Shown: positions 11,980 through 59,471 of the stretch, piece by piece | Numbering within the stretch: position 1 is the first letter of the stretch | Layout: each line of letters begins with the position of its first letter | Assembly: GCA_964390575.1 (NCBI GenBank) | Contig: CAYMIP010000004.1 | Span: 2,262 to 66,261, forward strand | Source of the DNA: an uncultured Desulfocurvus sp. | GTDB taxonomy: Bacteria; Desulfobacterota; Desulfovibrionia; Desulfovibrionales; Desulfovibrionaceae | Direction: 5' to 3' | DNA: 64,000 nt | The notes under the pieces: generated by a model | Told to the model about the DNA's origin: nothing | Databases searched by the model: none | The model's input: only the letters and a program-made list of their open reading frames with translations | Position numbers and translations under genes: made by a program

Positions 11980-13640
<1,661 letters not shown>

Positions 13641-13641
<1 letters not shown>

Positions 13642-13690
13642 GAGAAGAGCCTCCGGCGGCCGGGGGGCATGATGCCCCCCGAACCCCCTC
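13641..13690 (+). repeat. REP-like repeat, type 1 (GCCTCCGGCGGCC core plus G6/C6 hairpin)
   Basis: AGAGAAGAGCCTCCGGCGGCC-GGGGGGCAT-G-ATGCCCCCC-GAACCCCCTC. Including the preceding GTA, 23 nt are identical to the copy at 19506. It begins at the last base of the TAA stop. Confidence 0.8.
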
Positions 13691-13740
13691 AGTTCAAGGC
13701 AAAGCGCCGGAAACCCCCGCGCTTTCCCTGACTCACCAAA

Positions 13741-13785
13741 GCCGAAAGGGCTGGCTCAGGTTCCTCCTGAGCCAGCCCTTTCGGC
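13741..13785 (+). terminator. Perfect 20-bp stem hairpin (putative terminator or element core)
   Basis: GCCGAAAGGGCTGGCTCAGG-TTCCT-CCTGAGCCAGCCCTTTCGGC, followed by GTATTGT. It lies between the two inverted type-1 repeats. Confidence 0.5.
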
Positions 13786-13791
13786 GTATTG

Positions 13792-13863
13792 TGGGGGTCT
13801 GGGGGGCTTCAAGCCCCCCGGTGGGGTCCCAGGGGCAGCGCCCCTGGCCGCCGGAGGCTCTCA
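13792..13863 (-). repeat. REP-like repeat, type 1, inverted orientation
   Basis: Reverse complement reads GAGAGCCTCCGGCGGCC-AGGGGCGCTGCCCCTG-...-GGGGGGCTT-G-AAGCCCCCC-AGACCCCCAC. Same core, G6/C6 hairpin and AGACCCCC tail as the copy at 19510. Confidence 0.8.
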
Positions 13864-13908
13864 GCCCCAGGCATGACAAGCGCGGCGTGATGCGGTAGGG
13901 ATCGGCGC

Positions 13909-15114
13909 ATGGGTGTTCCGATCAAGGTTATGCACGTCATCACCGGCCTGAACCTGGGCGGTGCCGAGACCTGGCTCACGCGGCTGCTGTCGCGTCTGCC
14001 TGCGGACCGCTTCGAGTGCCAGGTGGTGAGCCTGCTGGACGGCGGCGTGCTGGCCGGGGCCATCCGTTCCCTGGGCGTGCCGGTGCACAGCCTGGGCCTG
14101 GGCCGGGGCGTGGCTGATCCGCGCGGGCTGTGGCGGCTGGCGCGCCTGCTGCGGGAGTTCCGGCCCCAGGTGGTGCAGACCTGGCTGTACCATGCCGACC
14201 TGCTCGGCCTGCTGGCGACGCGCTTGTCCGGCTCTCGCGCGGCGGTGAGCTGGGGCCTGCGCTGCGCGTACATGGACTTGCCCCGCTACGGCCTGGGCAC
14301 GCGGCTGACCCTCAATGCCTGCGCGGCGCTCTCGCGCTGGCCCGAGGCCGTGACGGCCAATTCCCAGGCCGGGGCAGCGCACCATGTGGCCCTGGGCTAC
14401 CGGCCCAGGCGGCTGGTGGTGCTGGAGAACGGCGTGGACGGCGAGCGCTTCCGGCCCGATGCCGAGGCCCGCGCGCGGCTGCGCCGGGACTGGGGCGTGG
14501 CCCAGGATGCGCCGCTCATCGGGCTGGTGGCGCGCATGGACCCCATGAAGGGCCACGCGGTGTTCTGCCAGGCTGCGGAAGTGGTGCTGCGCAAGCGCCC
14601 ACAGGCGCGGTTCGTGTTCTGCGGCGAAGGAACGGAGCAGGGCGGCGCGGAACTGGACGCCTTGGTGGAGCGCCACGGCCTCACGAGCGCTGCGCTGCGT
14701 TTGGGTCGGCGCGAGGACGTGGCCCAGGTCTCTGCGGCCCTGGATGTTCTGGCCCTGCCGTCCCTGGGCGAGGGCTTTCCCAATGCGGTGCTGGAGGCGC
14801 TCTCCTGCGGGGTGCCCTGCGCCTGCCTGGACGCGGGCGATGCGCGGGTCATGTGCGGGCCGGGCGGCCTGGTGGCCCCGGCCGCGCTGTCCGGGCCGGG
14901 CGCGCCAGAGGCGGAGCGGGCGGGGTTCCTGGCGGGCGCGCTGGATGAGCTTTTGGGCCTGACCCCGGCGCAGCGGGCAGGCATGGGCGCGCTGGGCCGG
15001 GCGCACGTGCTGGAGCGCTATGGCCTGGACCGGGCAGTGGAGCGCTGGGCAGCGCACTTCGAATCCCTGGCCAGCGGCCTGCGACAGCCTACCGATAGCC
15101 ACAAAATAAATTGA
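13909..15114 (+). CDS. Glycosyltransferase, GT4/group 1 family
   Basis: 'KVMHVITGLNLGGAETWLTRLL' N-terminus. 'PSLGEGFPNAVLEALSCGVPC' is the E-x7-E GT1 motif region. Confidence 0.85.
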   Translation: MGVPIKVMHVITGLNLGGAETWLTRLLSRLPADRFECQVVSLLDGGVLAGAIRSLGVPVHSLGLGRGVADPRGLWRLARLLREFRPQVVQTWLYHADLLGLLATRLSGSRAAVSWGLRCAYMDLPRYGLGTRLTLNACAALSRWPEAVTANSQAGAAHHVALGYRPRRLVVLENGVDGERFRPDAEARARLRRDWGVAQDAPLIGLVARMDPMKGHAVFCQAAEVVLRKRPQARFVFCGEGTEQGGAELDALVERHGLTSAALRLGRREDVAQVSAALDVLALPSLGEGFPNAVLEALSCGVPCACLDAGDARVMCGPGGLVAPAALSGPGAPEAERAGFLAGALDELLGLTPAQRAGMGALGRAHVLERYGLDRAVERWAAHFESLASGLRQPTDSHKIN

Positions 15115-18033: not shown

Positions 18034-19509
18034 ATGAGCGCCAAGCCGATGGACACGACGCCCAAAAAGCCCGCGAAGCGGGTTCCGCGCACTGAAATGC
18101 CCACGCAGCCGCCCATGCTGCGCATCCAGAACTACCTGGAGGTCGCCCTGGGATACACCGAGGCCGAGGCCAAGGCCGAGGCCGGGCGCTGCATCCAGTG
18201 CAAGAAGCCCACCTGCCGCCAGGGCTGCCCGGTGGAGATCGACATCAAGGGCTTCATCGGCCAGCTCCAGAAGAATGATCTGCCCGGCGCGTACAAGGTT
18301 CTGCGCGACTACAATTCCCTGCCCGCTGTCTGCGGCCGGGTGTGCCCGCAGGAGACCCAGTGCGAGGGTGAGTGCATCCTGGGCAAGAATCCGGCCAAGA
18401 CCGGCGGCCCGGTCTGCATCGGACGCCTGGAGCGCTATGTGGCCGACACCTTTGCCGCGCGCCTGGCCGCAGGCGACTCCGCCTGCATCCAGCTCACCGG
18501 CGAGGCCGCCTGCCGCATGGAGCGGCCCGATGTGCGCGTCGCCTGCATTGGCGGCGGGCCTTCCAGCCTCACCGTGGCGGGCTATCTGGCCGCCCTCGGC
18601 ATCAAGGTCACGGTGTTCGAGGCCCTGCACGAGGTCGGCGGGGTGCTCGTCTACGGCATTCCCGAATTCCGCCTGCCCAAGGCCATCGTGCGCCGCGAGA
18701 TCGACGCCATGAAGGAGCTGGGCGTGGAGTTCAAGACCAACTGGGTCGGCGGCAAGGCCATCATGGTCCAGGAACTGCTCGACCAGGGCTACAAGGCCGT
18801 GTTCCTGGGCGTGGGCGCGGGCCTGCCCCAGTTCATGAACGTGCCCGGGGAGAACAACATCGGCGTGTTCTCGGCCAACGAGTACCTGACCCGCGTGAAC
18901 CTGGGCCGGGCCTACGACTTCCCGAACTTCGACACGCCCATCTTCAAGGCCGACAACGTGGCTGTCATCGGCGGCGGCAACGTGGCCATGGACGCCGCGC
19001 GCACGGCCCTGCGCCTGGGCGCCAAGAACGTCTACATCGTCTACCGCCGCACCAAGGACGAGATGCCCGCCCGGCACGAGGAGCTGGAGCACGCCATTGA
19101 AGAGGGCGTGCAGCTCAAGTGCCTGTGCGGGCCGCTGGAGTTCAAGGGCGACGAGAACAAGCGCCTCAAGTCCATCCGCCTCCAGAAGATGTGCCTGGGC
19201 GAGCCCGACGCCTCGGGCCGCTGCCGGCCGCTGCCCATCGAGGGCGGCACCGACGAACTCGAAGTCGGCCTGGCCATCATCGCCGTGGGCACGCGGCCCA
19301 ACCCCATCCTGCTGGAGGCCACGCCAGGCCTGAAGCTGAACAAGCGCGGCTACATCGAGGCCGACCCCGAGACCGGCGAGACGAGCATCTTCGGCGTCTT
19401 CGCGGGCGGCGACATCGTCACCGGCGCGGCCACGGTCATCAGCGCCATGGGCGCGGGCCGCCGCGCGGCCAAGGAGATCGCGCGCAGGCTCCTGGGAGGC
19501 GAGGCGTAA
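18034..19509 (+). CDS. nfnB: NfnB/SudA-type subunit (glutamate synthase small-chain-like, 2x[4Fe-4S] + FAD/NADPH)
   Basis: 'RCIQCKKPTCRQGCPVEIDI', 'CGRVCPQETQCEGECILG', two dinucleotide folds 'VACIGGGPSSL' and 'VAVIGGGNVAMD', and 'VFAGGD'. Confidence 0.88.
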   Translation: MSAKPMDTTPKKPAKRVPRTEMPTQPPMLRIQNYLEVALGYTEAEAKAEAGRCIQCKKPTCRQGCPVEIDIKGFIGQLQKNDLPGAYKVLRDYNSLPAVCGRVCPQETQCEGECILGKNPAKTGGPVCIGRLERYVADTFAARLAAGDSACIQLTGEAACRMERPDVRVACIGGGPSSLTVAGYLAALGIKVTVFEALHEVGGVLVYGIPEFRLPKAIVRREIDAMKELGVEFKTNWVGGKAIMVQELLDQGYKAVFLGVGAGLPQFMNVPGENNIGVFSANEYLTRVNLGRAYDFPNFDTPIFKADNVAVIGGGNVAMDAARTALRLGAKNVYIVYRRTKDEMPARHEELEHAIEEGVQLKCLCGPLEFKGDENKRLKSIRLQKMCLGEPDASGRCRPLPIEGGTDELEVGLAIIAVGTRPNPILLEATPGLKLNKRGYIEADPETGETSIFGVFAGGDIVTGAATVISAMGAGRRAAKEIARRLLGGEA

Positions 19510-19558
19510 GAGAAGAGCCTCCGGCGGCTGGGGGGCTTCAGGCCCCCCAGACCCCCCC
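19510..19558 (+). repeat. REP-like repeat, type 1
   Basis: GAGAAGAGCCTCCGGCGGCT-GGGGGGC-TTCAG-GCCCCCC-AGACCCCCCC. Starts directly after the TAA stop of nfnB. Confidence 0.8.
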
Positions 19559-19562
19559 ATCA

Positions 19563-19610
19563 CGCGAAGGGCTCCTTCCGGCGCAAAGCCGCCGGAAGGA
19601 GCCCTTCGCG
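19563..19610. terminator. Perfect 21-bp stem hairpin between convergent genes
   Basis: CGCGAAGGGCTCCTTCCGGCG-CAAAGC-CGCCGGAAGGAGCCCTTCGCG, followed by TTGGTG. Lies between nfnB (+) and the REC-kinase gene (-). Confidence 0.55.
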
Positions 19611-19675
19611 TTGGTGCGTCACGGGAGAGCAGACGGAAAGGCAGGATAGAGGCACGCGGCCTGGCCGCGCCGGAG

Positions 19676-49048: not shown

Positions 49049-49978
49049 ATGTCCAACGTCTTTCGCTTCGGCCACGTGGCCCTCATGGGTCCGCCCAATG
49101 CCGGGAAAAGCACGCTGCTCAACCACATCCTGGGGCAGAAGCTGGCCATCGTCTCGCCCAAGCCCCAGACCACGCGCAACGCCATCAGCGGCATCCTGAC
49201 CACGGACGAGGCCCAGGTGGTGTTCCTGGACACCCCGGGCGTGCACCGCATGGCCGGGCGCATGAACCGCCTGCTCCTGCAGGCCGCCTGGGGCGCGCTG
49301 CACCAGGCCGACGCCGTGGTGCTCATCCTGGACGCCCAGCTCTACACCCAGAAGGGGCACCTCTTTGACCGCGAGATCTGCCCCCTGACCGACCCCGTGC
49401 GCCGCGCCGAGCGGCCCGTGTTCATCGCCGTGAACAAGGTGGACGCAGTAAAGCCCAAACCGAAGCTCCTGCCGCTGCTCGAAAAAATCGGCCAGGCCTT
49501 CCCCGGCGCCGAGATCTATCCCATCTCCGCAGCCACGGGCGACGGGGTGGACCTGCTCCTGGCGGCAGTCACCAAGGCCCTGCCCGAAGGCCCGGCCCAG
49601 TACCCCGAGGACCAGTTGTCCACCGCGTCCCTGCGCTTTCTGGCGGCAGAGACCATCCGCGAGAAGCTCTTTCTCGAGCTGGAGCAGGAGCTGCCCTACA
49701 ACACCCTGGTGGAGATCGAGACCTGGGAGGAGCCTGAAGCCGTTGACGGGAAACTCCCCGCCGTGCGCATCGCCGCCGCCATCCACGTGGCCCGGGCCAG
49801 CCACAAGGGCATGGTCATTGGCAAGGGCGGCCAGATGCTGAAGAAGATCGGCACCATGGCGCGCATCGAGCTGGAAGTGCTCATGGAGCGCCCGGTGCTG
49901 CTGGAGCTCTGGGTGCGCGTGCGCGAGGACTGGACCGAAGACCCCGGCTTCCTGAGCGAGATGGGCCTGGGGGAGTAG
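49049..49978 (+). CDS. era: GTPase Era
   Basis: 'GHVALMGPPNAGKSTLLN', 'SPKPQTTRN', 'DTPGVH', 'VNKVD' and a C-terminal KH domain 'VARASHKGMVIGKGGQMLKKIG'. Confidence 0.95.
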   Translation: MSNVFRFGHVALMGPPNAGKSTLLNHILGQKLAIVSPKPQTTRNAISGILTTDEAQVVFLDTPGVHRMAGRMNRLLLQAAWGALHQADAVVLILDAQLYTQKGHLFDREICPLTDPVRRAERPVFIAVNKVDAVKPKPKLLPLLEKIGQAFPGAEIYPISAATGDGVDLLLAAVTKALPEGPAQYPEDQLSTASLRFLAAETIREKLFLELEQELPYNTLVEIETWEEPEAVDGKLPAVRIAAAIHVARASHKGMVIGKGGQMLKKIGTMARIELEVLMERPVLLELWVRVREDWTEDPGFLSEMGLGE

Positions 49979-50001
49979 GAGAGAGAGAAATTTTTTTCTT
50001 T

Positions 50002-50030
50002 GGGGGCATGATGCCCCCCAAACCCCCTCA
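50002..50030 (+). repeat. Partial REP-like type-1 repeat (hairpin plus tail only)
   Basis: GGGGGCATGATGCCCCCCAAACCCCCTCA is nearly identical to 13662-13691. It lacks the GCCTCCGGCGGCC core and is preceded by a T7 run after the era stop. Confidence 0.7.
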
Positions 50031-50035
50031 TGTGC

Positions 50036-50078
50036 TTGCTGCGGTTTTGTGGCGGGAACCGCCGCGAAACCGCAGCAA
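50036..50078. other. Composite nested hairpin (12-bp outer plus 5-bp inner stem)
   Basis: TTGCTGCGGTTT-...GGCGG-GAA-CCGCC...-AAACCGCAGCAA in the era-ndh intergenic region. Confidence 0.6.
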
Positions 50079-50091
50079 AATGGGGAGACCA

Positions 50092-50143
50092 GAGGGCCTC
50101 AGGCCCTTTGGCGGGGGGTGCAGGGGGCAGAGCCCCCTGAGAG
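50092..50143 (+). repeat. REP-like repeat related to type 2 (AGGGCC..GGCCCTTTGG module)
   Basis: GAGGGCCTCAGGCCCTTTGGCGGGGGGTGCAGGGGGCAGAGCCCCCTGAGAGG. Shares GGCCCTTTGG and the terminal TGAGAGG with the copies at 58271 and 59290. Confidence 0.55.
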
Positions 50144-56898: not shown

Positions 56899-58272
56899 AT
56901 GTCAGGCAATATTCTCATTCTGGACGACGAGCAGAACTACCTGCTCGTGCTCGACGCCATCCTGTCCGACGCGGGCTACAAGGTCACCACCCTGTCCGAC
57001 CCGGAGATGGGCCTGGCCTTTCTCGAGGAATCCGAGGTCGACGTGGTGGTGACGGACATGAAGATGCCCAAGCTCACGGGCAAGGAGGTGCTCGACCACG
57101 TCAAGAAGCACTATTCCTACATCCCGGTGCTCATCATGACCGCCTTCGGCAGCATCGAGGCCGCAGTGGAGGCCATGCGCACCGGCGCCTTTGACTACAT
57201 CACCAAGCCCTTCTCCAACGAGGAGCTGCTGCTCTCCATCTCCAAGGCCATGCAGTTCGCCCGGGCCCAGCAGGAGAACCGCCACCTGCGCAGGCAGATC
57301 CAGGAGCGCTTCGGCCCGGAGAACATCGTGGCGCGCGACAAGAGCATGCGCCACGTGCTGGACATGGTCCACCGCGCCGCGCCCAGCCGCAGCACCGTGC
57401 TCGTCACGGGCGAGTCCGGCACGGGCAAGGAGCTTGTGGCCAAGGCCATCCACAACCAGTCCCCGCGCAAGGACGGGCCGTTCATCTCGGTCAACTGCAT
57501 GGCGCTCAATCCCGGCGTGCTGGAGAGCGAGCTCTTCGGGCATGAGAAGGGCAGCTTCACCGGCGCGGTGTCGCGGCGGCGCGGGCGCTTCGAGCTGGCG
57601 GACAAGGGCACCCTGTTTCTGGACGAGATCGGCGAGCTCTCCCACGACATGCAGGTGAAGCTGCTGCGCGTGTTGCAGGAGCGCCGCTTCGAGCGCGTGG
57701 GCGGCACCGACTCCATCGAGGTGGACATCCGCATCGTGGCCGCCACCAACCGCGACCTGACCAAGGCCATTGTGGACGGCCGCTTCCGCGAGGATTTGTT
57801 CTACCGCCTGAACGTGGTCAGCATCCATCTCCCTCCATTACGGGAGCGGCGCGAGGACATCCCGTTTCTGGCCGCGCACTTCCTGGACCGCTATGCTGCG
57901 GAGAACGGGCGCGAGCTCAAGGGCTTCACCGCGCGCGCCATGGACTACCTCTCGGCCTACGAATGGCCGGGCAACGTGCGCCAGCTGGAGAACGTCATCG
58001 AGCGCTGCGTGGTGCTCTCCTCCACCGACACCGTGGACGCCGAGGACCTGCCGCCGGAGATTCGGGACGAGGAGTCGCAGTTCAAGAGCGCCGTGGACCT
58101 CTTGCCCACCAAGCTGGACCTCTCCGAGACCCTGGAAAAGATCGAGGCGGCGGTGATCCGCCGGGCCCTGGTCCGGGCCGACTTCGTGCAGGTCAAGGCG
58201 GCGGAGCTCTTGAACGTGTCCAAGAGCCTGCTCCAGTACAAGCTCAAGAAGTACAATATTTCAGCGAAGTAG
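56899..58272 (+). CDS. NtrC-family sigma-54-dependent response regulator (REC-AAA+-HTH)
   Basis: 'ILILDDE...VVVTDMKMPKLTG', 'VLVTGESGTGKE', 'ELFGHEKGSFTGA', 'GTLFLDEIGE', 'GNVRQLEN' and HTH 'KAAELLNVSKSLLQYKLKK'. Confidence 0.93.
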   Translation: MSGNILILDDEQNYLLVLDAILSDAGYKVTTLSDPEMGLAFLEESEVDVVVTDMKMPKLTGKEVLDHVKKHYSYIPVLIMTAFGSIEAAVEAMRTGAFDYITKPFSNEELLLSISKAMQFARAQQENRHLRRQIQERFGPENIVARDKSMRHVLDMVHRAAPSRSTVLVTGESGTGKELVAKAIHNQSPRKDGPFISVNCMALNPGVLESELFGHEKGSFTGAVSRRRGRFELADKGTLFLDEIGELSHDMQVKLLRVLQERRFERVGGTDSIEVDIRIVAATNRDLTKAIVDGRFREDLFYRLNVVSIHLPPLRERREDIPFLAAHFLDRYAAENGRELKGFTARAMDYLSAYEWPGNVRQLENVIERCVVLSSTDTVDAEDLPPEIRDEESQFKSAVDLLPTKLDLSETLEKIEAAVIRRALVRADFVQVKAAELLNVSKSLLQYKLKKYNISAK

Positions 58273-58351
58273 GGGGGAGGCATCGGCCTCCGGCGGCCAC
58301 AGGGCCCTCTTTTTTGAGGGGGGGCCCCTTGGAATCCCCAGGGGTGAGAGG
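58271..58351 (+). repeat. REP-like repeat, type 2 (GTAG head, GCCTCCGGCGGCC core, hairpin, TTGGAATCCCC tail)
   Basis: (GT)AGGGGGGAGGCATCGGCCTCCGGCGGCCACAGGGCCCTC-T6-GAGGGGGGGCCCCTTGGAATCCCCAGGGGTGAGAGG. Its TAG is the stop codon of the NtrC-family gene. Confidence 0.8.
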
Positions 58352-58383: not shown

Positions 58384-59292
58384 ATGCAGATGAACGCACA
58401 AAAGAAGCAGCTGCTGGTCTGGGGCGCTCTGGCCCTGGCTGGCGTGGCGGCGGCGATCCTCGTGCTGCCGCTTTTGTCCGGCCCGCGCGGCCCGCGCTTT
58501 GAGGAGATTTTTGGCCGCAACATCATGAAGGCCAGGCTGGTGGGCCAGATGCGCGTCAGCCTGCTGGCTGCGGCCGAGGCCGAGAAGAGCGCCGTGCTGG
58601 CCGAGACCGACGAGGCCTCGGTGGAGTTCGCCCGGCGGGCGCGGCTTTCCGTGGAGCAGGTGGCCACGGCCCTGGCCGAGTGCAAGGGGCTGGTCAGCGC
58701 GCAAACGCCCGATGCGGACATGCTGCTGCGCTTTGAGGAGGCCTTTGGCGAGTACCGCAAGGTGGACGAGGAAGTGCTGGCCCTGGCCGTGCAGAACACC
58801 AATGTGAAGGCCCAGGCCCTGTCCTTTGATCAGGCCTCGGCGGCCTTGGCGCGCATGGAGCAGGCCCTGTCTGGGCACCTGGGGGCCAAGCGCGGCACGC
58901 CCCAGGCGGTCCAGGCCGGTCGTCTGGCCGCGCGCGCCCTGGCCGAGGCCTTGCGCATCCAGACCCTGCACGCCCCGCACATCATGGAAAAGACCGAGGC
59001 GCGCATGGACGAGCTGGAGGCGCGCATGGCCAAGGCCGACAAGCTGGTCCGGGCCTCGCTGGCGTCCCTGTCTGACCAGGGGGGGCAGGCGGCCGTGGTC
59101 CCGGCCCTCGCCGCGTACGAGGATTTCCAGAAGGTCACGGCCGAGGTGGTGCGCCTGTCGCGCCAGAACACCAACGTGCTCTCCCTGGCGCTGTCGCTGG
59201 ACCGCAAGACCAAGGTCCTGGCCGTGTGCGACGAGGCCCTGCGGGCTCTGGAGGAGAAGATCCAGGCGGACATGGCCAAGGGCACGCGGTAG
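58384..59292 (+). CDS. Membrane-anchored all-helical protein (4-helix-bundle MCP-like sensor module, no output domain)
   Basis: N-terminal TM 'LLVWGALALAGVAAAILVLPLL', then about 270 aa of Ala/Glu/Leu/Arg-rich helices. GGAGGAGGAG SD before ATG 58384. Family call is tentative. Confidence 0.6.
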   Translation: MQMNAQKKQLLVWGALALAGVAAAILVLPLLSGPRGPRFEEIFGRNIMKARLVGQMRVSLLAAAEAEKSAVLAETDEASVEFARRARLSVEQVATALAECKGLVSAQTPDADMLLRFEEAFGEYRKVDEEVLALAVQNTNVKAQALSFDQASAALARMEQALSGHLGAKRGTPQAVQAGRLAARALAEALRIQTLHAPHIMEKTEARMDELEARMAKADKLVRASLASLSDQGGQAAVVPALAAYEDFQKVTAEVVRLSRQNTNVLSLALSLDRKTKVLAVCDEALRALEEKIQADMAKGTR

Positions 59293-59345
59293 GGGGGAGA
59301 TAGCCTCCGGCGGCCAAAGGGCCTGCGGCCCTTTGGAATCCCCAT
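59290..59345 (+). repeat. REP-like repeat, type 2
   Basis: (G)TAGGGGGGAGATAGCCTCCGGCGGCC-AAAGGGCC-TGC-GGCCCTTT-GGAATCCCCAT. Its TAG is the stop codon of the preceding CDS. Confidence 0.85.
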
Positions 59346-59411
59346 AGAGGAGCTCGGTTCCTTTCCTGTGGTGAGGGTGGGTCGGAGAAATCTGGGCCGC
59401 CCTCGTTGTCG

Positions 59412-59471
59412 AAAGGGGATCCAAGGGGCGATAGCCCCTTGGCCGCCGGAGGCTTATCCCCTACACTCCCC
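59412..59471 (-). repeat. REP-like repeat, type 2, inverted orientation
   Basis: Reverse complement reads GTAGGGGATAAGCCTCCGGCGGCC-AAGGGGC-TATC-GCCCCTT-GGATCCCCTT. Paired changes in the stem keep the hairpin intact relative to 59290. Confidence 0.85.

Follow-up and report, generated by a model that had tools for sequence, protein, structure and literature searches.

A probably old and vertically inherited REPIN/BIME-like family of extragenic palindromes in part of the Desulfovibrionaceae

Introduction

Among the non-coding repeats of bacteria, the REP type is the commonest, and the REPs of enterobacteria have a RAYT (yafM). The bacterial interspersed mosaic elements (BIMEs) of enterobacteria, known from the work of Gilson, Bachellier, Hofnung and colleagues, are assembled from modules that are bound by gyrase, IHF or Pol I, and the Correia elements of Neisseria and the ERIC/IRU elements of enterobacteria and Yersinia are palindromic MITEs, studied by De Gregorio and colleagues. 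REPs of Escherichia coli were reportedly found by Liang, Rudd and Deutscher in 2015 to lie no more than 15 nt from stop codons. Short inverted repeats that stand close together are known to invert the DNA between them without a dedicated enzyme. The REPIN and REP systems used here for comparison are those of Pseudomonas, E. coli and Neisseria, which come with RAYT transposases, and REPINs decay after RAYT loss (PMC3116915; PMC3337134; 10.1101/2021.07.10.451892). According to the current view, REPINs persist only alongside a RAYT transposase.

In this work, we characterized 225 bp (13639-13863) that follow an acyl-CoA ligase gene in a window of 64,000 nucleotides, the whole stretch of DNA analysed, from an uncultured Desulfocurvus sp. 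whose genome (2.9 Mb, 66% GC) is 98.8% complete. With a probability of about 0.58, we interpret these 225 bp as one locus of an old, vertically inherited REPIN/BIME-like extragenic palindromic family found in part of the Desulfovibrionaceae. The family is a previously undescribed, RAYT-independent variant of REP/REPIN/BIME-type elements; a literature search returned nothing on its core, or on REPs or MITEs of Desulfovibrio.

Results

Organization of the locus

The repeats are built from recurrent modules. Module A opens with a GA-rich leader, continues with an invariant 13-nt core (GCCTCCGGCGGCY) and between one and three G/C hairpins, and closes with a C-rich tail. Usually it is joined (CCCCCATTGCGCC) to module B, in which a hairpin of 20-22 bp precedes a short T-run. 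In a composite, two inverted A modules with their cores outward enclose B. The parts of the locus are as follows.

13639..13641, plus strand: TAA stop of the AMP-binding acyl-CoA ligase gene (11971/11980-13641; ORF list, Pfam AMP-binding and AMP-binding_C)
13642..13648, plus strand: GA-rich leader of the plus copy, GAGAAGA
13649..13661, plus strand: core of the plus copy, GCCTCCGGCGGCC
13661..13681, plus strand: beta-type hairpin of the plus copy, CGGGGGGCAT-G-ATGCCCCCCG
13682..13691, plus strand: C-rich tail of the plus copy, AACCCCCTCA
13697..13729, strand not applicable: small imperfect hairpin with 14-nt arms, 86% complementary
13739..13787, minus strand: module B, 20-22-bp hairpin GCCGAAAGGGCTGGCTCAGG / CCTGAGCCAGCCCTTTCGGC, which goes with the minus copy
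13788..13847, minus strand: alpha-type body of the minus copy
13829-13847, read on the minus strand: hairpin of the minus copy, CCAGGGGC-GCT-GCCCCTGG
13801-13819, read on the minus strand: hairpin of the minus copy after a spacer, GGGGGGCTTGAAGCCCCCC
13788-13800, read on the minus strand: tail of the minus copy, AGACCCCCACAATAC
13846-13858, minus strand: core of the minus copy, GGCCGCCGGAGGC (reverse complement)
13846..13863, minus strand: core of the minus copy with its short leader TCTCA (reverse complement TGAGA)

The original prediction had described inverted copies of one motif around a structured interior without an ORF, and all of these features were found in place, including a perfect 20-bp stem (arms 13741-13760 and 13766-13785) and a 23-mer, GTAAGAGAAGAGCCTCCGGCGGC, that occurs exactly twice, at 13638 and 19506 (0 expected). 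A predicted 7-bp hairpin at 13701-13725 is also present, but it is better drawn with 14-nt arms at 13697-13710 and 13716-13729 (86%); unlike A and B, this small hairpin was not seen to recur as a module. Two inverted repeats link the plus and minus copies, one of 21 nt with 95% complementarity and one of 32 nt with 84%. The beta-type hairpin of the plus copy is shared with several further loci, and the alpha-type two-hairpin layout of the minus copy recurs at C12 16193, at C76 1118 and in genome G007. Homology assigns the 20-bp hairpin to the minus-strand copy; on that strand its loop reads AGGAA, and TTTGG follows the hairpin. The minus-copy core points to the start of a GT4 glycosyltransferase gene at 13909, and the minus copy has no minus-strand gene upstream ('opp 46').

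These features lie far above chance level. The core, with up to two mismatches, was found six times in the window against 1.7 expected, a count that none of 100 shuffles reached; the G6C..GC6 hairpin was observed four times against 0.13 expected, and the folding energy of the region is -174 kcal/mol (z = -11.4). Comparison of the locus with the Rfam 15 covariance models yielded chance-level matches alone (E of at least 0.3, far under the gathering scores). A scan of 13500-14000 for the intrinsic-terminator consensus found no passing hairpin with T-run; module B is reversed at this locus.

Further copies were identified in the same window.

19506..19620, plus strand: solo copy at the TAA stop of an NfnB/GltD-like gene
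49977..50140: decayed composite without a core, with a partial nhmmer match
58271..58330, plus strand: family copy from the TAG stop of a sigma-54-activator-like gene onward
59287..59468: second inverted pair of copies, with cores at 59303-59315 (plus strand) and 59441-59453 (minus strand)

The solo copy is ordered as leader, core GCCTCCGGCGGCT, hairpin, tail AGACCCCCCC and a 21-23-bp hairpin of the B' type. In the decayed composite, a beta-type hairpin after TAG-GAGAGAGAGA is followed by a long hairpin and two reversed alpha-type hairpins.

A dispersed family with conserved cores and covarying stems

The motif is neither confined to the window nor always coding elsewhere: the genome holds 81 exact cores, of which approximately 65 stand in element context, and 75-94 nhmmer matches, nearly all of them intergenic; the family has about 75-90 copies. 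These genome-wide copies support the predicted dispersed repeat family of the REP/BIME type. True inverted pairs number 16, all in plus-then-minus order and never the reverse, and solo copies are more numerous than pairs. At least five compact composites, 128-153 bp long, share the layout of the ligase locus. Homology between copies begins somewhere between positions -10 and +2 relative to one core and stops at the other core; the best pair of copies shares 91% identity, none being near-identical. Furthermore, the set comprises alpha-type A, beta-type A, B, B' and a further module C, in combinations that vary between gene ends.

In an alignment of 42 copies, most columns of the core show either no variation or at least 90% conservation, and the core, an imperfect palindrome centred on CCGG, is identical in approximately 65 copies and in several genera. 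GTAG occurs only where a TAG stop happens to follow G, the conserved flank being GCCTCCGGCGGCY. The B family has 26 copies, 24 of which have an A module within 120 nt; in other copies, 2-7 T come after forward-oriented B, and in G003, G005 and G007 the hairpin runs into TTTTG.

The hairpins of module A are G/C stems of 9-10 bp that covary: 97.1% of the stem cells are paired, double changes were found in seven of nine pairs, and 69 stem cells are changed on both sides against 19 in shuffles. Neither A nor B stems displayed a wobble signature of sense RNA, as G-U was not favoured on the sense strand (14 A.C against 1 G.T in A stems; 16 G.T against 19 A.C in B stems). The 14:1 asymmetry of the A stems stems from one alignment column and related copies, and was therefore not used to name the folded strand. 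A leader-tail helix was rejected, since a copy's own leader-tail pairings were no better than cross pairings.

Placement at stop codons and gene ends

For the position statistics, genes were called with a GC3-based caller made for this analysis. Among 57 stringent copies, 50 have an upstream gene on the same strand, and in 35 the core lies at most 16 nt from the stop codon, against 7.5 +/- 1.9 expected. By type of intergenic region, 31 copies are convergent, 17 tandem sense, 6 tandem antisense and 1 divergent, the genome totals being 257 convergent, 859 tandem and 282 divergent gaps; the family thus prefers convergent and tandem gene ends. In several composites, both ends abut the stops of two convergent genes. 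Adjacency to stop codons was also observed for 30 of 65 copies in other genomes. That the locus starts at a stop codon, as originally noted, is correct, yet it is a general property of the family and not peculiar to this site.

All three kinds of stop codon are found at the copies, with variable spacing, and the leader ranges from -1 to 46 nt across orthologous sites. Stop-codon capture was discarded as a general rule: the C-termini of the ligase, QueF, HemW-like and M16 proteins are unchanged, and queC, whose ORF extends into the element to give a QueC end of ASGG..A*, is the sole case. The shrinking of the leader from 46 nt to overlap with the stop, together with ORFs that end inside the element, favours deletion down to the coding limit over targeted insertion. 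Integron attC sites, DNA uptake sequences, SECIS elements and read-through signals were also considered and dropped, because there are no GTTRRRY boxes or cassette arrays, the copies are too few, all three stops are used and the spacing varies.

Taxonomic distribution and turnover at orthologous sites

The family is present in many species of the same genus (records titled Humidesulfovibrio and Desulfovibrio sp. DV) and, beyond it, in at least four genera of Desulfovibrionaceae (g6, g11, g12 and g16). No copies were found in other families of the order, and plasmid and phage collections gave no real match to the element.

Copies are retained at orthologous sites, yet some have been gained, lost or replaced, and some cores have decayed. 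The ligase site is filled in 6 genomes and empty in 13, which requires at least two gain or loss events, and the ligase C-terminus (..ERMNM*) is identical in orthologues with or without the element. Ordinary terminators occupy the empty ligase sites. The proposed comparison of empty and filled sites recovered both kinds, but in place of a clean insertion the whole 3' region is replaced. The queF site carries hairpins of different types and is occupied in at least 14 of 20 genomes, in a comparison where core variants (ACCTCCGGTGGCC) within the genus blur presence and absence; at the queF, hemW and M16 sites, some cores are decayed or deleted next to an intact flanking gene. Between orthologues, the core is conserved above third codon positions (65-84% identical).

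Composite sites also differ in orientation between species. At the ligase site of G007, the homologous A-B sequence forms a single plus-strand unit, and flipping the G000 interior in silico raised the alignment score against G007 from 52 to 186; at the M16 site (contig C18, 37042-37251), an interior flip raised the score against G003 from 124 to 250. Thus, two of the four composite sites compared, including the ligase locus (interior 13662-13845), are inverted between species; the breakpoints fall at the cores, with leader and core staying put. As the sister species carries the same sequence as a single plus-strand unit, the layout in the present genome is the product of an inversion. Only one other assembly has the same ligase; it breaks off halfway through the beta hairpin and shows the orientation seen in the window. 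A look-up of the glycosyltransferase for further assemblies of the locus gave no match, and a metagenome scan recovered two fairly close relatives only, both with empty sites.

Search for a mobilising enzyme or parent element

The RAYT partner proposed for such repeats was not found: this genome has no RAYT/Y1 gene (PF01797), nor have 20 of the 21 genomes in the genus, and in other copy-rich genera no core lies within 1.5 kb of a Y1 gene. Genes with a copy on either side are ordinary, none being transposase-like and no recombinase being linked to copies. Likewise, core pairs 0.4-8 kb apart enclose ordinary genes and no autonomous copy, and a self-BLAST of the genome for a parent insertion sequence found only a Mu-like transposase and paralogous genes. 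No direct repeats were found at the flanks of the ligase locus or of the compact composites, where the variable GA tract could hide a duplication of 2-3 bp. The original view of the 225 bp as a mobile element holds in that its composite layout recurs, but not as regards a target-site duplication, a parent insertion sequence or near-identical copies. Nor do the 225 bp form a discrete mobile unit, as each core belongs to a gene end and the 20-bp hairpin is itself a repeated module.

Discussion

The reading that we favour, a REPIN/BIME-like family, would see the ligase locus as a beta-type A module on the plus strand at the ligase stop, joined by an alpha-type A-B unit on the minus strand. Such a family may descend from a palindromic mobile element that was non-autonomous and depended on an enzyme since lost or not recognised. 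As neither a transposase, nor a target-site duplication, nor a clean empty/filled pair was found, the argument for mobility is drawn from copy number, subfamilies and turnover of sites. What is maintained could be the DNA palindrome, as a single-strand hairpin or cruciform, rather than a fold of the sense RNA. Retention might follow from A-B now giving the upstream gene its 3'-end hairpins or a predicted terminator; the family is probably a gene-end terminator region. Deletions in a slippage-prone GA leader would have shortened it and drawn the core to the stop codon, and close inverted cores may allow occasional flips of the interior through template switching or recombination. The uniformity of the core, together with its conservation between orthologues, speaks for a trans-acting factor or for gene conversion and runs against a purely decaying selfish remnant.

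A host-selected RNA element of the 3'-UTR would explain part of these observations differently. On this account, a protein, nuclease or small RNA binds the single-stranded core, which contains CCUCC, and the hairpin, so that mRNA 3' ends are marked or stabilised, and the copy number reflects recruitment by many genes. The sense orientation close to stop codons, the invariant core among copies and genera, the retention of orthologous copies conserved above third codon positions, and a mobilising enzyme that was not found all fit this account. Nevertheless, G-U pairs are almost absent from the sense strand, antisense partner copies such as that of the ligase locus have no upstream gene, cores are deleted or decayed at several orthologous sites with the neighbouring gene intact, sister species have ordinary terminators at the same sites, and Rfam gave no match; we thus regard it as unlikely. 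Improbable too is a classical MITE in which the A modules are terminal inverted repeats around a central B, moved by the DDE transposase of an insertion sequence with the same ends, solo A-B units being broken halves. Its small size and terminal-inverted-repeat layout, the recurrent compact composites of 128-153 bp with homology ending at the cores, and the existence of both filled and empty orthologous sites would be expected of it, but solos exceed pairs, near-identical copies are absent, target-site duplications were not seen, the genome contains neither an insertion sequence nor an ORF with such ends (the single transposase seen is Mu-like), several composites end on both sides at the stops of two convergent genes, and filled sites represent a replaced 3' region rather than a clean insertion.

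The inverted composites raise the question of a dedicated invertible gene-end cassette, in which a site-specific recombinase would cross over at the core and so flip or exchange the hairpin interior, each flip changing which neighbouring gene faces the T-run side of B. The interspecies flips at two of the four orthologous composites, which left leader and core where they were, the hairpin types that vary between species at one site around a constant core, and the imperfect palindrome centred on CCGG agree with such a cassette; against it, no recombinase is linked to the copies, approximately 80 inter-recombining sites would scramble the genome, and flips between close short inverted repeats are known to occur without a dedicated enzyme, which makes it quite improbable. 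A canonical REP/REPIN population mobilised by a RAYT shares extragenic palindromes, single copies with inverted doublets, and vertical inheritance (PMC3116915; 10.1101/2021.07.10.451892), but this genome lacks PF01797, as do 20 of 21 in the genus, no core flanks the Y1 genes found in other copy-rich genera, and the GTAG head is missing; this explanation is already largely refuted, and its probability is very low. A bolder and rather unlikely proposal is that the core serves as the handle of an undescribed, RAYT-independent machinery of Desulfovibrionaceae that maintains, flips and exchanges gene-end hairpin cassettes between two cores, which would jointly explain the uniform core, the hairpin types differing at one site and the repeated inversions at cores.

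For the REPIN/BIME-like family that we favour, the combination of a REPIN layout, vertical inheritance and a uniform core without RAYT would mean either that another enzyme or host function maintains the repeats, or that the rule tying REPINs to RAYTs is not general. The family offers material for asking why hairpin repeats sit on stop codons, as well as for the study of gene-end remodelling by close inverted repeats, with two independent interior flips. In practical terms, assemblies of these groundwater sulfate reducers are fragmented by the repeats, which can also lengthen annotated proteins, such as QueC.

Compared with REPINs and REPs (PMC3116915; PMC3337134; 10.1101/2021.07.10.451892), the present repeats are likewise short extragenic palindromes with a conserved single-stranded flank and a covarying hairpin, occur as singles and inverted doublets in tens to hundreds of copies, and are chromosomal, vertically inherited, kept at orthologous sites and diverse within a genome. 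They differ in that the RAYT is missing from 20 of 21 genomes of the genus, a 13-nt core replaces GTAG, hairpin B (20-22 bp) is present inside the doublet as a third repeated module, and the copies are strictly polar with respect to the upstream gene, whose stop codon they touch. Whereas REPINs without RAYT decay, the core here stays uniform. As in enterobacterial BIMEs, several repeated modules form mosaics, which lie at the ends of operons or where two genes converge. The sequences of the modules are unrelated, and the comparison of the two covers mosaic organisation. With Correia and ERIC/IRU elements, the composites share an imperfect palindrome of 100-160 bp with terminal inverted repeats, predicted co-transcription with neighbours, no known dedicated transposase and possible effects on mRNA ends. 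Unlike Correia elements, which have a TA target duplication and defined ends, they show a variable GA tract and no visible duplication, and, in contrast to both Correia and ERIC/IRU, solo half-units are the majority. Finally, like the E. coli REPs near stops, the copies start within the ribosome footprint of the stop codon; there this applies to a subset, whereas here it involves about two thirds of the copies, and some ORFs end inside the element.

Sequence features of the ligase locus

The region downstream of the acyl-CoA ligase gene carries two inverted copies of a repeat, here designated module A (a GA-rich leader, an invariant 13-nt core, one or more G/C hairpins and a C-rich tail), with further hairpins between them, as follows:

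13639-13641, plus strand: TAA stop codon of the AMP-binding acyl-CoA ligase gene (Pfam)
Between this TAA and the core, plus strand: leader of the plus copy, GAGAAGA
13649-13661, plus strand: core of the plus copy, GCCTCCGGCGGCC
13661-13681, plus strand: hairpin of the plus copy, CGGGGGGCAT-G-ATGCCCCCCG, then AACCCCCTCA
13697-13729: small imperfect hairpin between the two copies
13741-13785: perfect 20-bp stem between the two copies
13863 down to about 13788, minus strand: whole minus copy, with leader TGAGA and tail AGACCCCCACAATAC
13858-13846, minus strand: core of the minus copy
13847-13829 and 13819-13801, minus strand: two hairpins of the minus copy

The sequence features listed in the original prediction were all found as described, with chance ruled out by shuffle controls, and the region folds with z = -11.4. 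Likewise, the 23-mer spanning the ligase stop codon has its exact second occurrence at the stop codon of an NfnB/GltD-like gene (19506).

Genome-wide family and module A

The genome to which the window belongs (G000; 2.92 Mb, 148 contigs, 66% GC) contains 81 exact GCCTCCGGCGGC cores; in about 65 cases a hairpin and a C-run come next. A profile made from core-hairpin copies gave 94 matches, 75 covering the core region. Seven copies lie inside the window, including a decayed one near 50000 whose core is gone. Module A comprises a leader of variable length, the core, a 9-10-bp stem, with T-G-A as the loop in most copies, and then G(A/G)A(A/C/T)CCCC. In an alignment of 42 copies, 97.1% of the stem cells are paired, two-sided changes occur in 7 of 9 stem pairs, and double-change cells number 69 against 19 in shuffles, with almost no one-sided (wobble) changes. 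The hairpins belong to discrete types repeated across many loci and several genomes, such as CAAGGGGCC, CAAAGGGCC, CGGGGGGCAT and TGGGGGGCTT.

Variant arrangements were also observed. At L039 3913-3990 (HGW-Deltaproteobacteria-8) and at loci L032, L038, L051 and L075, two to three tandem units of a 13-nt spacer plus core, repeating every 26 nt, lie ahead of one hairpin; at L039 the partial reverse complement of the core directly follows it (GCCTCCGG-CGG-CCGGAGGC). In the queF-queC spacer of two relatives (L091 and L093, from G004 and G021), two or three A-type hairpins form an array beside a hairpin of the B' type described below; an ACCCCGC-like tail follows each of them, and no core is present. 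On contig C124 (about 1345-1375), a reverse-orientation copy brings the GGAGG of its reverse-complemented core to 9 nt 5' of a gene's ATG, where it could serve as that gene's ribosome-binding site.

Module B, inverted pairs and composites

A hairpin scan of the same genome returned 100 long hairpins, 45 of which lie within 120 nt of a module A. Family B accounts for 26, with the pattern ..CGCC-GAAAGGGCTGG..CAGG-loop-CCTG..CCAGCCCTTTC-GGCT.., and 24 of these adjoin an A; six others, including the one at nfnB, form the related family B'. The commonest unit is A-CCCCCATTGCGCC-B, then 2-7 T. A third module (ATTGGSCTGGGCC ... GGCAGAGGC ... CAATGCG, an inner hairpin, then CGGTTGGCC) was found repeatedly in the longer spacers of several species, at several sites unrelated to one another (C74 8560-8700; C18 15560-15640; loci L082, L083, L086, L105, L127 and L128). 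Since the 20-bp hairpin and the third segment are repeated modules of their own, the organisation is a mosaic, and the proposal that the 225 bp form a discrete unit was not borne out.

Read in the forward direction, hairpin B has the loop AGGAA (13761-13765 in the window, and in 26 other B copies genome-wide), set within CAGGAGGAACCUG; this is Shine-Dalgarno-like and includes GGA, and the core includes CCUCC. Pairing of the core with the B loop, or a GGA-binding protein, is conceivable.

We identified 16 true inverted pairs in the genome, every one plus then minus with the cores outward; the single reverse-ordered pair of core matches has no element context. Five are compact composites of 128-153 bp, consisting of an A with an alpha-type hairpin, B, and an A with a beta-type hairpin at the T-run side of B. 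Homology between composite copies (70-91% identity) begins within 10 nt of one core and stops at the other. The predicted layout of terminal inverted repeats around a structured interior is thus a recurrent one; compared with the compact composites, the ligase locus has an additional small hairpin and an alpha arm of two hairpins.

Position relative to genes and distribution

Position statistics were based on our own GC3-based gene caller, which is crude (2360 genes, 83% coverage). A same-strand upstream gene is present at 50 of 57 stringent copies, and for 37 no more than 16 nt separate the end of its stop codon from the core; 35 copies were observed near a stop, against 7.5 +/- 1.9 expected under uniform placement within the same gaps. 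By gap type, 31 copies are in convergent, 17 in tandem sense and one in divergent gaps; the latter are avoided, yet they equal convergent gaps in frequency in the genome. In several convergent gaps both stop codons are touched by the two cores, and antisense copies, such as the minus copy at the ligase locus, are frequently partnered with a sense copy. Among loci of other genomes, 30 of 65 copies lie within 24 nt of the stop codon of a long, high-GC3 ORF.

Many genomes of the genus are rich in the core-plus-hairpin pattern, and so are four other genera of the family (matches include Humidesulfovibrio sp., Desulfovibrio sp. DV, a Desulfocurvus MAG and groundwater MAGs), and the pattern search found none in other families of the order. 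Genomes that appear low-copy carry variant cores, e.g., ACCTCCGGTGGCC. Plasmid and phage collections gave no real match, no Rfam family matches the element, and the literature searched held nothing on the family. The palindromes break short-read assemblies: an independent assembly with an identical ligase gene (L153 2737-2769; Logan contig, SRR13723397) ends exactly at the centre of the beta hairpin, and many contigs of one relative (G032) start 20-50 nt from a core.

Comparison of orthologous sites

Orthologous comparison covered four sites, with most relatives represented by draft MAGs. At the ligase site, the element is present in six genomes (G000, G003, G005, G007, G015 and G018), beginning at the stop codon in each and leaving the ligase C-terminus (..ERMN(M/L)*) unaltered; 13 genomes have ordinary hairpin-plus-T-run terminators instead. 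The gene tree requires at least two gain/loss events, and what distinguishes a filled from an empty site is a replaced 3' region, not a clean insertion. Between the convergent queF and queC genes, a copy follows queF in 14 or more of 20 genomes; its leader is 8-17 nt long, and its hairpin type differs among species. In five species (L078, L079, L082, L083 and L086; C2 79585-79625 is the queC 3' end in the window's genome), queC has no stop before the element and its frame continues through the core (GCC TCC GGC GGC, ASGG) and closes within the element or directly downstream of it; in four of the five the stop is the hairpin-loop TGA, giving the protein end ASGG(Q/P)(G/R)A*. In genomes farther off within the genus, the core is missing there and the C-terminus differs. 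At a HemW-like gene, the TAG stop shares one base with the core in G000, the leader is 20 nt in G007, and the core is decayed in G012 and lost in G003. At an M16-peptidase-like gene, the leader is 2, 6 or 46 nt long, and G005 and G007 have a deletion of the core.

These four sites indicate that the copies are old and inherited, with leader length altered by insertions and deletions, and the position against the stop codon looks like a limit of deletion rather than targeted insertion. Orthologous cores are mostly identical, against 65-84% identity at the third codon positions of flanking genes in the compared species, which argues that the core is either constrained or homogenised.

Inversion of the interior

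In G007, the ligase stop is followed by a single plus-strand unit (leader, core, two hairpins, tail, B and TTTTG). When the G000 interior between the cores was flipped in silico, it aligned to this unit over 144 nt, the first 41 identical, with a score of 186 against 52 unflipped. At the M16 site, flipping the G000 interior raised the score from 124 to 250 against G003 and from 125 to 208 against G007, whereas G012 aligned better with it unflipped (111 vs 85); comparison among relatives revealed no flip at the queF/queC and HemW sites. The ligase and M16 alignments indicate at least two interior flips whose breakpoints lie at the cores. As a result of the flip at the ligase locus, B faces away from the ligase gene: on the plus strand it runs into GTATTGTG, with no T-run, and a consensus terminator scan found no match. 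Close, short inverted repeats are known to invert without a dedicated enzyme; a dedicated recombinase is a less likely, though conceivable, source of these flips.

Nature of the family and relation to known systems

A fold selected in the sense transcript should accept G-U pairs and reject A-C pairs. Stem mismatches, a small sample from related copies, comprise 14 A.C and 12 T.C against one G.T in module A, and 16 G.T against 19 A.C in module B; furthermore, no leader-tail covariation was found in module A. These results fit a palindrome maintained as DNA, like those of REPs and MITEs, better than they fit a motif of the sense RNA.

Regarding mobility, the original reading as a REP/BIME-like repeat cluster with a MITE-like layout holds for the kind of element; for the mechanism it is mistaken or unsupported, as no RAYT (the Y1 transposase of REP/REPIN systems), target duplication or parent element was found. 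The RAYT search it had called for (PF01797) gave no match in the window's genome or in 20 of 21 genomes of the genus, the richest in copies included, while control genomes did respond. Y1 genes occur in copy-rich genera elsewhere in the family, none with a core within 1.5 kb. Repeats above 250 bp in the window's genome consist of either paralogous genes or duplicated segments; one such segment codes for a Mu-like (rve-type) transposase, the sole transposase seen in the assembly (two 98%-identical copies, C24 92-2281 and C69 258-2104). Distant core pairs enclose only ordinary genes, and genes with copies on both flanks are ordinary as well. Separately, a 2-kb segment with small genes of unknown function is shared by C103 and C107 (98%).

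REPINs are reported to decay after RAYT loss (10.1101/2021.07.10.451892). With no RAYT in the window's genome, this family lacks a defining feature of the REPIN-RAYT system. We class it with REPIN/BIME-type elements, of which it is a new, RAYT-independent form; it is probably kept as gene-end hairpins and shares with BIMEs a mosaic organisation of repeated modules.
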